This document shows, piece by piece, positions 2,030 through 61,639 of a DNA stretch of 64,000 nucleotides (positions are counted from its first letter, which is position 1; the number at the start of each line of letters is the position of its first letter). The stretch is from Octopus vulgaris (lineage: Eukaryota). Below the pieces are notes generated by a model that saw only the letters and a list, made by a program, of their open reading frames with translations, was not told the DNA's origin and ran no database searches. A program made the translations under genes and the position numbers. The stretch covers positions 46,314,001-46,378,000 of the forward strand of contig OX597833.1 of assembly GCA_951406725.2 (NCBI GenBank), given 5' to 3'.

Positions 2030-2394
2030 TGAGCCGCAGGTTTTATGTCGGAGTTATCCCAGTTACCTGAGTTACCTTCTCCTAGAAGGATGCCCTAGCA
2101 AAAGCTAGGAGTCCTTCACTCCCAATGGTTTAACCGCGCGATCGGGTATTCAGTCCGATTATTTCTATGTCTCCGCGCATGATACTTCCTTAAGACATTT
2201 ATTGGATGGCCGTTGACTCTCAAGAGTTCCTCCGCCCTTTGACGGGTTTTGTTTTTCATCCCGAAGGGTGTCCAATAAACACCCTTCTCACCAAGCAAGC
2301 TTGGTGGGGTTGCCGGTTTAGTCACCGACGACCCGACCATGCAACAGGTTGTACTGGGTTACATGTTACCAGTAGCACTCGAAATTGACCTGAC
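2030..2394 (-). mobile_element. GC-richer repeat fragment, possibly a LINE UTR
   Basis: Compositionally distinct block between TA-rich tracts with short hairpins (GGGTGTCCAATAAACACCC, CCAAGCAAGCTTGG); no recognisable ORF. Class and strand are guesses. Confidence 0.3.
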
Positions 2395-2398
2395 ATAT

Positions 2399-2461
<63 letters not shown>

Positions 2462-2462
<1 letters not shown>

Positions 2463-2862
2463 TAATAAATAAATAAAACATATGCATATATACATACATA
2501 TATGTACGTACCTACCAAAAAAACGTCGAACACAATGAGAAACGAAAACATAAACACAAAACCAAGGAAATGGACATTTTTCTTAAACAACGAAAAAATA
2601 GAGTACAGGACATACAAAACAAGGAAAATTTCCCTTCTTCAGTCACCTTTGTTTCATATACTCCACGTTTCGAAGGTCAAGGCGATACATGACTTCAATG
2701 AAACTTTCCTTCCCGCGAAAATCAAATTAAATAAAATTTGAGATTTTTTTGGCGGAGGGGTAAAAATGGTAACAAAAACAGGACAGTAACGACAGTACAA
2801 AATATAAACAGTAAAAGACAGGACACGGAGAATAACAGTAACACGAACAAGAAGGGCTGTTA
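2462..2862 (-). mobile_element. Non-autonomous repeat carrying a rearranged hammerhead (family R, copy 1)
   Basis: Homologous to 60956-61445, 56525-56885, 32655-32822 and 60185-60460; flanked by (TA)n. Confidence 0.8.
2630..2704 (-). ncRNA. Candidate non-circularly permuted hammerhead ribozyme, intact core
   Basis: - strand: guuucau-ugaagu-caug-UA/ucgccuu-ga-ccuuc-GAAA-cgug-gaguau-augaaac-a-aagguga-CUGAAGA-aggg. Predicted cleavage after GUA, between 2686 and 2685. Confidence 0.7.
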
Positions 2863-2886
2863 AAAAAAAAAATATATATATATTTA

Positions 2887-3387
2887 CTAGCAGTATCGCT
2901 CGGCGTTGCTCGGGTTTGTAAGGGAAATAACTATATAAGCATTTTTAGAGAGTTACTTCCCTTATAGATGCCAATTCGGGCTTTCTTAGCCATTTCTGTT
3001 TTGGTGTCTTCAAGCCATGAAGTCGTTGTTCTAAAAGAACGCTGATCTCCTTGACAACGCTTTACGACGTTGATTTCCTTACACTCCCTTCCCCACAGCT
3101 TCACGAGGGAGGGAAGAAGAGGGAGAAGCAAAGAGGTGCAAGTGTGACCATGGACGCCAACTCCGCCGCCATCGACACACGAAAAATTATGCATTAAAAT
3201 GGAATAAAAAATGATGTTAAATTATTTTTAAAATCGTAGACTTATCGTAGACGCACGCTAATACTCAGACGGGCTCGATATGAATCACGACTATAAGATA
3301 CCCGAATTTGGTTAAACTGCACCGCAAAATGTGGGAGTAGTTAGGAATCTAAATCGAAGGGGACAGACACTCACACAACTACAGTTT

Positions 3388-3395
<8 letters not shown>
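2887..3395 (-). mobile_element. Non-autonomous Helitron
   Basis: - strand ends in a CCCGAGCAACGCCGAGCG hairpin followed by CTAG|T; same family as 19366-19761. Confidence 0.8.
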
Positions 3396-3449
<54 letters not shown>

Positions 3450-4367
3450 TATAAATAATAATAAGCTCAAGCTTATAAGTGTTCACTGTATATTGGATAT
3501 AGAAAATAGTCTAATATTGGGGCATTTAAGTCCTGGACGGAAAAGCATTATAGACTTCGTTATTTTCAATATTCCTATTTTTGATGCTCGACTAGTTTAT
3601 TTCGCCCTTTTTTTTTTTTTGTAGGAAGTGAGACCCTGCATCCGGTGCCACCTGGAGGTATATACGAACTTTTAGTCTGAAGTTCAAGTAAATAACTAAG
3701 CTCATTGCCTGTTGAAGTTATTCATTACCTCGTCAATCAGTTAATGTAAAAATAAGATGGCGTAAAATATATTCTATTCTCGAGCAGGAAGTTAATATTC
3801 ATAAGAAAAGAACTGAATAAATAAATAACAAAATACCGGAACATATGACTTAATGAGTTTAGTTTTGTCCTTCGACGGTCTGAATATAAATCTACTACTA
3901 TAGTTTTACTATTTTCTCACCCTTATGGTTTGGATAAAGGAAGTACCAAAGGTACATACGGGTATTTTTACAATCGATAGTGAATATCTTATTACAAATT
4001 TTTTGTCCTCACAGCAAGGTGAAAAATCAATATTTATGAGACCACGTGTGTGCGTGTGTGTGTGGGGGACTATGGATTTACAGAATCAGTGAAGCGTCTG
4101 AGAAAAAGCATATAGCACGTGGTATTTCATTATGAGTCCTTACACTTTCTGAGTTTAAATTCGAATAGGGCCGACTTAGCCTTTGATTCCTCCGGGATCT
4201 ATAAAATAAAGTAATAATCAAAAACTACAGTGGGTTTAATCTATTATACTCAACTCTCCAAGTTAAAATGTGTGACTTAGTACCATTTGAGTCTACCTAT
4301 TGAGTAGTACCTATTGAGTCTACCATAGTACCTATGGTAGGTTCAATATTTATGTGGCAGCATAAAT

Positions 4368-14544: not shown

Positions 14545-15104
14545 TGAGGATTTTCTACTCTAGGCACAACGCGCGAAATCTTTGGGCAGTGGGCCAGTCG
14601 ATTAGATCGACCTCAGTATGCAACTGGTACTTAATTCTTCGACCCCGAAAGCATGAAAGGCAAAGTTGACCTCGGCGGGATTTGAACGTAAAGACAGACC
14701 AAATACCTATTTCTTTACTACCCACCAGGGGCTAAACACAGAGGGGACAAACAGGGACAGACAAACGGATTATGTCGATTATATCGACCCCAGTGCGTAA
14801 CTGGTACATATTTAATCGACCCTAAAAAGATGAAAGGCAAAGTCGACCTCGACGGAATTTGAACTCAGAACGTAACGGCAGACGAAATACCTATTTCTTT
14901 ACTACCTACAAGAGGCTAAACTCACAGAGGGGACAAACAAGGACAGACAAACGGATTAAGCGTAACTGGTACTTATTTAATCGATCCCGAAAGGATGAAA
15001 GGCAAAGTCGACCTCGGCGGAATTTGAACTCAGAACGTAGCGGCAGATGAAATACCGCTAAGCATTTCGCCCGGCGTGCTAACGTTTCTGCCAGCTCGCC
15101 GCCT
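14545..15104 (-). mobile_element. SINE family B trimer
   Basis: Three tandem cores (GATGAAAGGCAAAGTCGACCTCGGCGGAATTTGAAC on +); head at 15104. Confidence 0.9.
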
Positions 15105-23174: not shown

Positions 23175-23543
23175 GCGGCGAACTGGCAGAAACGTTAGCA
23201 CGCCGGGCGAGATGCTTAGCGGACTTTGCCTTTCATCCTTTCGGAGTCGACTAAATAAGTACCAGTTACGCACTGGTGTCGATATAATCGACTTAATCCG
23301 TTTGTCTGTCCTTGTTTTTCCTCTCTGTGTGTTTAGCCCCTTGTTGGTAGTAAAGAAATAGGTATTTCGTTTGCCGTTACGGTCTAAGTTCAAATTCCGC
23401 CGTGGTCGACTTTGTCTTTCATCCTTTCGGGGTCGATAAATTAAGTAGCAGTTCCGCACTGGGGTCGATGCAATTGACTTAATCCGTTTGTCTGTCTTTG
23501 TTTGTCCCCTCTGTTTAGCCCCTTGTGGGTAATAAAGAAATAA
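23173..23543 (+). mobile_element. SINE family B dimer inside an (AGAT)n tract
   Basis: Head GGCGGCGAACTGGCAG, two cores, GATA repeats on both sides. Confidence 0.88.
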
Positions 23544-32559: not shown

Positions 32560-32822
<263 letters not shown>

Positions 32823-32853
32823 TATATATATATATGTATGTATGTATATATGT

Positions 32854-41804: not shown

Positions 41805-42418
41805 TCGGCGAGCTGGCAGAAACGTTAGCACGCCGGGTGAAATGCTTAGCAGTATTTCGTCTGTCTTTACGTTCTGAGTTCAAATTCTACTGAGGTTGAC
41901 TTTGCCTTTCATCTTTTCGGGGTCGATAAATTAAGTACCAGTTACGCACTGGAGTCGATGTTATCGTCTTAATCCGCTTGTCTGTCCTTGTTTGTTCCCT
42001 CTGTGTTTAGCCCCTTGTGGGCAATAAAGAAATAAGAAACGTCAGCACGCCGGGCGAAATTCTTCGCGGTATTTCGTCTGCCGTTACATTCTGAGTACGA
42101 ATTCTGCCGAGGTCGACTTTGCCTTTCATCCTTTCGGGGTCGATAAATTAAGTATCAATTACGCACTGGGGTCGATATAATCGACTTGATCTGTTTGTCT
42201 GTCCTTGTTTGTCCTCTCTGTGTTTAGCCCCTTGTGGGTAGTAAAGAAATAGGTATTTCGTCTGTCTTTACGTTCTGAGTTCAAATTCTACCGAGGTTGA
42301 CTTTGCCTTTCATCTTTTCGAGGTCGATAATTTAAGTACCAGTTGCGTATTGGGGTCGGTGTAATCCACTGGCCCCCTCACCAAAACTTTCGGGCCTTGT
42401 GCCTGGAGTAGAAAAGAA
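41805..42418 (+). mobile_element. SINE family B trimer
   Basis: Head at about 41805 and three cores. Confidence 0.9.
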
Positions 42419-43615: not shown

Positions 43616-44134
<519 letters not shown>

Positions 44135-44254
44135 TATCTATCTTTGTCTCTTTCTTTTTTTCTCTTTCGTTCACTCCCATCATGCTGTCACACATCAGGT
44201 TGAGCGGTGAAAGATTGCAAGTTAGTTTATATTGCCTGAGAAATATCGTCTGTT

Positions 44255-51529: not shown

Positions 51530-52145
51530 TCTACTACAGGCATAAGGCCTGAGAATTTTTAAAGACGGAGTACCAGTCGATTATATGGACATCTGTGCTC
51601 GACTGGTACTTCTTTTATCGATCCCGAAAGGATGAAAGGCAAAGTCGACCTCGGCGGAATTTGAAGTCAGAACGTAACGGCAGATGAAATACCTATTTCT
51701 TTACTACCCACAAGGGGCTAAACACAGAGAGGACAAACAAGGACAGACAAACGGATTAAGTCGATTATATCGACCCCAGCGCGTTGCTGGTACTTAATTT
51801 ATAGACCCCGAAAAGACGAAAGGCAAAGTCGACCTCGGTGGAATTTGAACTCGAAACGTAACGGCAGATAAAATACCGCTAAGCAATTTTCCCGGCGTGC
51901 TAACGATTCTGCCAGCTCCGCTTTATAATATAATCTTTTCTACTCTAGGCACAAGGCCCGAAATTTGGGGGAGGAGACCAGTCGATTAAATCGACCTTAG
52001 TACGCAGCTGGTACTTAATTTATCAACCCCGAAAGGATGAAAGGCAAAGTCAACCTCGGCGGAATTTGAACTCAGAACGTAAAAACAGACGAAATGCCAC
52101 TAAGCAGTAAACCCGGCGTGCAAACAATTCTGTCAGCTCCGCCTT
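51530..52145 (-). mobile_element. SINE family B cluster
   Basis: Three cores, two heads. Confidence 0.88.
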
Positions 52146-56459: not shown

Positions 56460-56524
<65 letters not shown>

Positions 56525-56530
<6 letters not shown>

Positions 56531-56885
56531 TATATGCATACGTATATGTGCATGCATACATCTGTACATATATATATGCATATGTGGGCACAGGACGTCA
56601 CGAAACGTGTACAACAAAAATATACGAAGCACAAGTACATGAACTATTCTTTCGAACAACGAAAGACACAAATGGAAAACAAAAACAAACAACATAAAAA
56701 ACGACCCTTCATCAGTTGTTGGCTGCTTTCCTAGTCTCGTATTTCAAGCATTTAACAACAATATACGCTTTCGATAAAACAGTTCCTTCCGCAAAGCAAA
56801 TTAAATCAAATTGGGGATTTTGCGGAGGGTCTAAATTTGTAGCACAAACAGGACAATAAAAACAAATAGGAAGGACTGCTAAGCC
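56525..56885 (-). mobile_element. Family R copy 2
   Basis: Inverted homologue of 60185-60460; shares hairpin and core motifs with 2462-2862. Confidence 0.8.
56704..56782 (-). ncRNA. Candidate non-circularly permuted hammerhead ribozyme, intact core
   Basis: - strand: cuguuuu-aucgaaag-cgua-UA/uuguug-uuaaau-gcuu-GAAA-uacg-agacuagg-aaagcag-c-caacaa-CUGAUGA-a-gggu. Predicted cleavage after AUA, between 56762 and 56761. Confidence 0.72.
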
Positions 56886-56892
56886 TAAACGA

Positions 56893-57280
56893 ATGGCTGT
56901 GTGGTAAGTAGCTTGCTTGCCAATCACATGGTTTCGAGTTCAGTCCCACTGCGTGGATATCTTGAGCAAGTGTCTTCTACTATAGCCGCAGGCCGACCAA
57001 AGCCATGTGAATGGATTTGGTAGACGGAAACTGAGAGAAGCCCGTCGTATTCAAATATGTGTATGTATTTAGTGTGTGTCTGTGTTTGTCCCCCTGCCAT
57101 CGCTTGACAACCGATGCTGGTGCGTTTATGTCCCCGTCACTTAGCAGTTCGGCAAAAGAGACGGATAGCATAAGTACCAGGCTTACAAATAATAAGTCCT
57201 GGGTGGATTTCTTCGACTATAAACGCTTTAAGGTTGTGCTCCAGCATGGCCGCAGTCAAAATGACTTAAACAAGTAAAGT
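56893..57280 (+). mobile_element. SINE family A
   Basis: Head TGGCTGTGTGGTAAGTAG through tail AACAAGTAAA. Confidence 0.88.
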
Positions 57281-60122: not shown

Positions 60123-60184
<62 letters not shown>

Positions 60185-60188
<4 letters not shown>

Positions 60189-60354
60189 GCTCGAAATACA
60201 AGACTAGAAAAACAGCCAGCAATTAATGAAGGGTCGTTCTTTATGTTGCTTGTTTTGTTTTCCATTTGTATCTTTCGTTGTCCAGTTCATGTTCCATGTA
60301 CTCGTCCTTCGTATTTTTTCTTGTACACGTTTCGTGACGTGCTGTGCCCACCTA

Positions 60355-60405
<51 letters not shown>

Positions 60406-60921: not shown

Positions 60922-60955
<34 letters not shown>

Positions 60956-60968
<13 letters not shown>

Positions 60969-61026
60969 TGTATGCATATATACATACATATATGTACATA
61001 CTTACATCTACATGTATATATACATG

Positions 61027-61078
<52 letters not shown>

Positions 61079-61445
61079 TACAGGACACCACAAATAAACG
61101 TGGAACACAACGAGAGACGAGAACATAAAATCAAACAAGGAAACAGAGTACAGGACAAACAATACAAGGAAAATTCCCCTTCATCAGCTGTCCCTGGTTC
61201 GACTCAAAGTGTGTTTCGAAGGTAAGGACAGAGCAGAGTCGAAGCAGTCCTTCCTGCAAAAGTACTTAAATAAAATTCTTTTGCAGAGGGGTAAAACAAG
61301 TGACAAAAACAGGACGTAAAAGCAATACAAATGAAGAAAAAAACAATACAAATGAAGAAAAAACAGTACAATAAATATAACAGGACAGGAAACAGACAAT
61401 AAGGGCTTTTTTTGCCTGGACGGTGGAAAAATTAGTTAGAACGCT
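60956..61445 (-). mobile_element. Family R copy 3
   Basis: Closest to 2462-2862, including the ATAAATAAATAAAA..TATGCATATATACATACATATATGTAC end. Confidence 0.8.
61176..61243 (-). ncRNA. Rearranged hammerhead motif with non-canonical cleavage triplet (GCU)
   Basis: - strand: uucgacuc-ug-CU/cuguccuu-ac-cuuc-GAAA-ca-cacuuu-gagucgaa-cc-agggacag-CUGAUGA-a-gggg. Confidence 0.62.
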
Positions 61446-61639
61446 TTATATATATACACACACACACACACACACGATGGGCTTCTTTCAGTTTCTGTCT
61501 GCCAAATCCACTCACAAGGCTTAAATCAGCTCGAGGTTATAGTAAAAGACACGTGCCGAAGATGCCACGCAGTGGGACTGAAACAGGAACCATGTGGTTG
61601 GGAAGCAAGTTCCTTACCAAACAGCCATGTCCTAACTTC

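Follow-up and report, generated by a model that had tools for sequence, protein, structure and literature searches.

A high-copy repeat of Octopus vulgaris carries a hammerhead motif in type-SGC order, with a core probably opened at the A9/G10.1 link

Six permutations of the hammerhead ribozyme have been published, with unbroken blocks in the accessible accounts, and the text available from Eckert (2023; PMC10085705) assumes that the link within a block is never interrupted beyond one or two bases. Perreault (2011), in the accessible part, reports core insertions of one or two bases only. Type SGC, a non-circular block order, is placed by the accessible text of PMC10085705 in metatranscriptomes only, where HRIMA-1 and its variant are described as 61–65-nt motifs and are assigned to no known organism's genome. 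An insertion at the link between A9 and G10.1 is tolerated by the CChMVd (+) hammerhead, in which A10 occupies this place (PMC3705267, available text). In animals, the accessible descriptions of non-LTR retrozymes (PMC7229834; 10.64898/2026.07.22.740005) give type I hammerheads in units of mostly 170–400 nt, and those of the pseudo-LTRs of Penelope-like elements (PLEs; PMC4209133) give minimal type I hammerheads of classical order with almost no stem III, proposed to work as dimers. In the literature covered, in which subscription journals are thinly represented, we found no SGC-order hammerhead in an animal, no core opened by a junction, and no test of a hammerhead with a helix inserted at A9/G10.1. 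Nor was the element described here found in that literature, where the supplement of Eckert was searched by term only, and the repeat may already have a name.

The window analysed here, a 64-kb stretch of the 2.8-Gb, microsatellite-rich Octopus vulgaris genome, contains on its minus strand (2760–2631) a hammerhead motif with all letters present (Table 1). Read 5′ to 3′ on that strand, CAUG-U-A (2691–2686) is followed by UCGCCUU, a GA linker and CCUUC-GAAA-CGUG (2676–2664), and then by AAGGUGA-CUGAAGA (2649–2636) and AGGGA-AAUUUUCCUU. The first-pass annotation had drawn a rearranged hammerhead at this place, and we found its parts as drawn on the minus strand: stem III of caug (2691–2688) with cgug (2667–2664), the GUA triplet (2688–2686), a 7-bp stem I of UCGCCUU (2685–2679) with AAGGUGA (2649–2643), including one G-U pair, and the core CUGAAGA (2642–2636), with the GAAA block at 2671–2668. 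The rearrangement was borne out as well: the blocks follow in the order cleavage site, GAAA, CUGANGA, which is type SGC in the nomenclature of Eckert (2023). The hammerhead core (C3-U4-G5-A6-N7-G8-A9, G12-A13-A14, A15.1-U16.1 and H17) is complete in the window copy, so that the term “intact” holds for the core letters and not for the whole copy, which is 5′-truncated at about 2863 and deviates from the family at 2645, 2631, 2658 and 2751. Across 20 aligned rows the core is constant and the stems are variable; the U16.1 column is invariant in 20/20 MAFFT rows, CUGANGA and GAAA being search anchors. No hammerhead was present in the best 150 of 263 Rfam matches at E ≤ 1, as would be expected given the permuted block order, and the matches listed are microsatellite-driven miRNA noise only. 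Just as in HRIMA-1 and its variant (PMC10085705, accessible text), the S-G-C order and all the core letters are combined with a short linker between stems I and II (about 1–5 nt across the copies) and with a helix joining the far sides of these stems. This helix, J, occupies the position where the type-SGC ribozymes, as described in that text, place the stem I–II interaction.

Table 1. Positions of the ribozyme elements, repeat copies and other dispersed repeats in the window
Feature	Position	Strand	Evidence or remark
Proposed helix X, 5′ strand CCCCU; partner, the purines directly after A9	2756..2760	-	G-C to U-A in 6/20 rows
Proposed hairpin H, CCGC...GCGG with U-rich loop, stacked directly between X and stem II	2713..2755	-	Two-sided changes in 3/4 bp, 90% of cells paired
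Proposed stem II, 5′ strand G10.1-AAGG, from upstream	2708..2712	-	99% of cells paired, two-sided changes in 3/5 pairs
Proposed helix J, 5′ strand GUUUCAU (stem I–II link)	2698..2704	-	6.4 Watson-Crick pairs with own partner vs. 4.8 permuted, 0/2000 permutations
Stem III, 5′ strand CAUG, with U16.1 (2687) and A17 (2686)	2686..2691	-	Letters, alignment, 5′-end pile-up
Predicted cut	between 2686 and 2685	-	After H17
Stem I, 5′ strand UCGCCUU	2679..2685	-	88/90 cells Watson-Crick vs. 63 permuted
Proposed stem II, 3′ strand CCUUC, with C11.1 at 2672 and a 2-nt linker to stem I	2672..2676	-	Covariation
G12-A13-A14-A15.1 and stem III, 3′ strand CGUG	2664..2671	-	57/72 cells Watson-Crick vs. 34.5 permuted
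Proposed helix J, 3′ strand AUGAAAC	2651..2657	-	Own-partner test
Stem I, 3′ strand AAGGUGA (family: AAGGCGA), and core C3–A9 CUGAAGA	2636..2649	-	Letters, alignment, close copies
Proposed helix X, 3′ strand AGGGA (AGGGG in 26/28 close copies)	2631..2635	-	
3′ hairpin AAGGGA-AAUU-UUCCUU, overlapping A9 and helix X	2621..2636	-	Can form, no covariation
Subfamily A copy, 5′-truncated, 3′ end into (AT)n tract	2441..2863	-	88% to natural long copy L007 over 464 nt
Subfamily C-type copy; preceded by (AT)n, starts a few bases past the predicted cut	32590..32826	-	
Decayed copy of subfamily C, with U for C11.1 and an altered upstream stem II strand	56484..56901	-	
Subfamily C copy with decayed core; preceded by (AT)n, starts a few bases past the predicted cut	60184..60404	+	
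Subfamily B copy, core damaged: C at U16.1 (61233), stem III pair broken	60931..61447	-	
Dispersed repeat family	1408-1766, 41810-42372, 51573-51933		85-89% identity
Dispersed repeat family	417-642, 43915-44140		85-89% identity
Dispersed repeat family	14738-14960, 23292-23514		85-89% identity

The pattern GAAA...CUGANGAAGG gave 9,875 exact matches in the genome vs. 55 for the reversed control, thus indicating that the motif is not due to chance. Stems I and III passed in 42/90 pattern loci as compared to 1/95 metagenome and 0/120 viral hits; the latter two sets were considered as possible family members and rejected as chance-like (44/64 parts were covered by the viral scan). Each of three window copies, used as query in DNA searches, gave about 40 scored matches from 2,290–3,607 first-look candidates, and the 93 copies among the matches listed fall into many subfamilies; 133 candidates carrying the upstream part of the structure were grouped into 24 clusters. 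The repeat unit is about 790 nt long (794–811 in four subfamily A loci, 765–892 in most other tandems), no ORF was found inside it, and in long copies the sequence passes, on the upstream side, into another unit's 3′ end. Five copies of the repeat lie in the window, the one at 61.2 kb being probably dead, to judge from its core letters. Assembled sequencing-run contigs from four organisms cover parts of the unit, which indicates that relatives carry the family. The repeat resembles the animal non-LTR retrozymes, as presented in the accessible parts of PMC7229834 and 10.64898/2026.07.22.740005, in its non-coding tandem unit with one hammerhead each, its thousands of dispersed copies and its link to PLEs. 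It differs from them in the longer unit, in copies that are mostly truncated or 1–1.3 units long, so that the tandems are mostly partial, and in a ribozyme of SGC order rather than type I, which type I descriptors would miss.

Near the unit start and in a 45-nt tail, a motif resembling a 5′ splice site, GTAAG(A/T) or GTGAGT, is kept (at about 1085–1095 in L007 and at 30 other places, also in L137 and L156); no matching 3′ splice site was identified for it. PLEs keep an intron in their terminal repeat. The window also holds other dispersed, SINE-like repeat families.

To assess the fold, pairs were counted in 106/133 copies and 18/24 representatives with the registers fixed by core anchors, while the unparsed 27 candidates and six representatives were dropped; the anchors of the script fixed U16.1, H17, G10.1 and the inner three X pairs, whose invariance in that count is therefore not evidence. 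In the 18 representatives, stems I and III scored above all 5000 partner permutations, and each of stems I and III, upstream stem II, X, H and J did better than partner permutation (p about 2e-4). Depending on the subfamily, GAAA is preceded by CCUUC, UGCUC or CGUUC, while AGGG follows the core throughout. The variable five bases are matched by a strand some 40 nt 5′ of GAAA (GAAGG/CCUUC, GAGCA/UGCUC, GAACG/CGUUC), giving three Watson-Crick versions of an upstream stem II with a sixth pair in one lineage. Furthermore, the AGGG(G/UC) that follows the core has its match in a second strand upstream, CCCCU or GACCCU, and the covarying hairpin H lies between both upstream strands, no spare base being left at any junction. 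In a 20-row MAFFT alignment that was not fitted to the fold, X, H and upstream stem II together are paired in 91.9% of cells with two-sided changes in 8/15 pairs, a result reached in 0/500 shuffles and compared to 38–55% for slid registers. The closing pair of stem II is G-C in 20/20 rows with the upstream strand; the contiguous alternative, a possible one, is G-U-rich. The duplex energies in typical copies are −5.7 for upstream stem II and −8.5 for X vs. −3.1 for a local stem II. The covariation reflects few events, the stem II changes falling in clade C, its sister lineage D and one B lineage of a flanking-sequence tree, and the shuffle tests ignore relatedness; likewise, the genome-wide counts of 1,041 for GAGCA..UGCUC vs. 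10 for GAAGG..UGCUC mostly reflect subfamily descent, not independent covariation.

Taken together, these data point to a perfect four-way junction, likely formed by X, H, upstream stem II and the core at the A9/G10.1 link, and we consider it probable that the upstream stem II is part of the active fold. The suspicion voiced in the first-pass annotation that stem II is not formed as drawn was thus the right lead, as the covariation favours the upstream strand. In the type-SGC ribozymes of PMC10085705 (accessible text), CUGAnGA is contiguous with the stem II strand; in the octopus repeat, by the covariation, block C would be interrupted, the strand lying 70 nt upstream with X and H in addition. 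The CChMVd insertion likewise amounts to one nucleotide in the available text of PMC3705267, whereas that of the octopus motif would be a two-helix arm together with both chain ends. Hairpin H varies in length and keeps a UUUUAUUU-like loop in all subfamilies (window 2713–2755), a possible site of protein binding or tertiary contact. Among other arrangements considered, an extension of H by pairing of the X 5′ strand with the stem II 5′ strand showed no covariation, nor did pairing of the 3′ U-rich tract with the 5′ strand of II or the 3′ strands of X, I or J. Pseudoknot-free folding was rejected as a judge of the fold, for it misses stems I, III, II and X.

If the RNA is cut, the copies may bear traces of it at their 5′ ends. 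A pattern lying roughly 130 nt 3′ of the predicted cut (3,566 matches) served as the sampling anchor; 90 loci were taken from among the first 100 matches listed, every one on contig C1, and yielded 95 distinct copies of A/B/E-type only, whose 5′ ends were mapped against 15 natural references, 13 copies extending past the interval examined. In this sample 27/95 copies start 0 to +28 from the predicted scissile bond, at points scattered over 28 nt rather than at one base. Starts in [0,+29] occur in 27/76 copies at risk, compared to 1/49 in [-30,-1] (p=4e-6) and 3/79 in [+30,+59] (p=3e-7). None of the 27 cut-site starters (0/27) has the upstream ribozyme part within 200 nt, and the window copies at 32.8 and 60.2 kb also begin just past the cut. 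Head-to-head inverted copies form long palindromes (L010, L018, L035/L039, L282, L299), and several inverted pieces begin within about 10 nt of the predicted cut. An edge at the predicted bond is as expected if cleaved RNA is reverse-transcribed; on the simplest reading of the pile-up, many templates ended at the scissile bond and a few bases were lost at integration, which suggests that the RNA is cut in the living animal. That the repeat belongs to a self-cleaving lineage we regard as very probable.

The insertions of the repeat bear the marks of PLEs, which the accessible part of Craig et al. lists as 5′ truncation, partial tandems, inverted 5′ pieces, a short tail and microsatellite targets. 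Among the 95 copies, a microsatellite flanks the 3′ end in 85, an inverted piece stands at the 5′ end in 13 (two inverted pairs contribute twice, once from each side), and 17 run on past the usual 3′ end by a tail of about 45 nt. The repeat is thus probably mobilised by Penelope, as far as its insertion pattern tells. In six of 320 loci the unit is adjoined by PLE fragments, and direct or near-direct junctions with 5′-truncated fragments of several PLE families are seen there (L137:900-1800, L020:82-2059, L257, L290, L063, L016); this adjacency fits template jumping, but shared (AT)n targets could also give it.

The ribozyme itself has features in common with the PLE pseudo-LTR hammerheads of PMC4209133 (accessible text), namely an extra unpaired base 5′ of stem II and, as in subfamily C, a GAGC/GCUC stem II, along with tandem, inverted and tailed insertions. 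The octopus motif differs from them in a 4–5-bp stem III, with which it can fold as a monomer. Classical-order cores in the sampled loci carry an extra base at A9/G10.1 in 13/15 cases, and their commonest stub has the GAGC/GCUC stem II of subfamily C. The extra base and the shared stem II suggest that the hammerhead of the repeat descended from a PLE hammerhead, a descent we infer from the letters of both. Classical minimal stubs (core, extra A, GAGC/GCUC or GGGC/GCUC) are common in the genome (L062, L074, L017, L164, L313, L093), and a second type of classical stub has a longer stem II (L237, L258, L094).

The chief rival of the upstream stem II is a local one. The repeat would then be a plain type-SGC hammerhead with a switch, whose active stem II forms with a bulged A followed by GGGG paired with CUUC, and the upstream X, H and II would be a selected off-state undone by a protein or another RNA. 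Counting G-U, this local register with the bulged A pairs in 77/79 cells (97.5%), shows one two-sided change and is reached in 1/500 shuffles, and an extra A before G10.1 is normal among the PLE-type hammerheads of the genome. Yet just 31/72 of its cells are Watson-Crick, which is not above the permuted level (p=0.15), its position 2 is G-U in 106/106 copies, and it would require the melting of two stronger helices that are transcribed earlier; moreover, helix J is placed after the upstream strand, and SGC ribozymes have it after stem II. We therefore regard the local stem II as unlikely. A switch of another kind had been proposed in the first-pass annotation, where the hairpin AAGGGA-AAUU-UUCCUU immediately 3′ of the core, or a mispairing of CCUUC with GAAGG of the core, might control cleavage. 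The hairpin is indeed there, reaching slightly beyond the range first given, and a similar sequence follows the 61.2-kb copy as stated, though the core of that copy is damaged. In the window copy its probability is about 0.95 in a pseudoknot-free fold and it is predicted to be 0.9 kcal/mol more stable than helix X; it can form in most A/B-type copies at about −4 kcal/mol, and UUCCUU is kept in 8/10 A/B-group representatives. However, the strand it sequesters is probably not stem II, none of its six pairs (0/6) shows a two-sided change, 409/500 shuffles reach its pairing, and subfamilies C, D and E have it in weak form or not at all. Helix X is favoured over it in 18/18 representatives, with a margin of about 2.8 kcal/mol in typical A/B copies and a larger one elsewhere (nested part only). 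The hairpin wins in the window copy because of a G-to-A change at 2631, present in 2/28 close copies, which makes the hairpin stronger and X weaker. When the downstream U-rich tract was compared with four strands, an own-partner preference was seen with none of them, and the mispair fails in C and D, two of its positions being broken where the strand before GAAA is UGCUC. The absence of two-sided change, the loss to X and the rarity of the 2631 change indicate that the hairpin is a plausible misfold and not a switch of the family; in the window copy it is plausibly a sign of decay, and by the predicted energies it may lower the activity of this copy alone. A selected off-switch made of the hairpin or the mispair is, in our estimate, very improbable.

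Two further alternatives concern the cut and the element rather than stem II. The structure could be derived from a hammerhead and no longer cut, the 5′ peak being due to stalling of the reverse transcriptase or to a nuclease at a tight knot; the spread of the ends over 28 nt inside the knotted region would agree with this, and catalysis is a prediction from sequence. But the edge at the predicted bond is sharp (27 vs. 1), no 5′-end peak was found among the 95 copies at hairpin H or at the 3′ border of the structure (3/79), and the core letters are all kept across divergent subfamilies while the stems covary, so we give this explanation hardly any credence and retain the cleaving one. Alternatively, the unit could be the terminal repeat (pLTR) of an undiscovered autonomous Penelope-like or Naiad element, which would leave the ribozyme fold unchanged. 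The PLE-type hallmarks of insertion speak for it, as does a unit fragment just before a PLE ORF1 fragment (L290), and Naiads are reported without hammerheads, in the accessible text, by classical descriptors that would be blind to the SGC order. Against it, what the long copies reach on their upstream side is another unit's 3′ end and not an ORF, so that the unit lacks the autonomous PLE layout of an RT and GIY-YIG ORF between pseudo-LTRs, and an intact 781-aa PLE of the genome has a different terminal repeat. Neither 50 GIY-YIG loci (20 of them extended to 9 kb) nor 8 extended chimeric loci yielded an autonomous element that has the unit for its terminal repeat, and 0/8 of the chimeric loci show the unit repeatedly at the own 3′ end of a PLE. 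We hold this origin to be distinctly improbable and keep to a non-coding unit moved by a helper. A young two-ORF PLE was noted on two contigs (L151:906-4587, L152, L153; contigs C16, C17). Intact 781-aa RT/GIY-YIG frames of this element are numerous, and it also has an upstream ORF and a terminal region rich in repeats. No SGC motif was found near it, and no classical hammerhead was found at its ends by a simple regex.

Most likely, then, though with some reservation, we are dealing with a tandem repeat that is non-coding and present in high copy number, of which the locus is one slightly decayed example. Its SGC hammerhead has a core that is predicted to be opened at A9/G10.1, and its RNA is likely to cut itself. 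From 5′ to 3′ the proposed fold would run X5′, H, II5′, J5′, III5′-UH, I5′, II3′-GAAA-III3′, J3′, I3′-CUGANGA and X3′. The chain would leave the core at A9 into helix X and re-enter it at G10.1 from the foot of H, such that X, H, stem II and the core make up the four-way junction with no unpaired base, and J would tie stem I to stem II. Cleavage would release a unit-length RNA from tandem transcripts. A Penelope-type reverse transcriptase, the putative helper enzyme, would prime near a fixed 3′ end and copy the cleaved RNA up to its new 5′ end, giving the short copies, while uncut or re-ligated RNA would be copied through the cut site into long copies of 1–1.3 units. The 3′ hairpin would be a side fold, favoured here by the rare G-to-A change at 2631.

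On balance we favour, with moderate confidence, the broader view that an active hammerhead, distinct in layout from the six published permutations, is present in the genome in about ten thousand copies, is opened at A9/G10.1, serves a new class of retrozyme, has its cut recorded in the 5′ ends of the copies and escapes the standard descriptors. Until now, as far as the accessible text of the sources goes, the non-circular permutations came from two metagenome sequences and from uncultured RNA replicons, in neither case with a host or a biological setting; here such a permutation occurs in an animal genome, in many subfamilies and with a footprint of cleavage in the genomic copies. Should stem II indeed be formed with the upstream strand, the unbroken blocks assumed for the six permutations would not hold, and surveys of retroelement ribozymes by descriptors would overlook such cases. 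The fold would hold both cleavage products by four helices (X, II, J and III), which may favour re-ligation to circles. If our view is true, other Penelope-type repeats considered “ribozyme-free” may carry such ribozymes.
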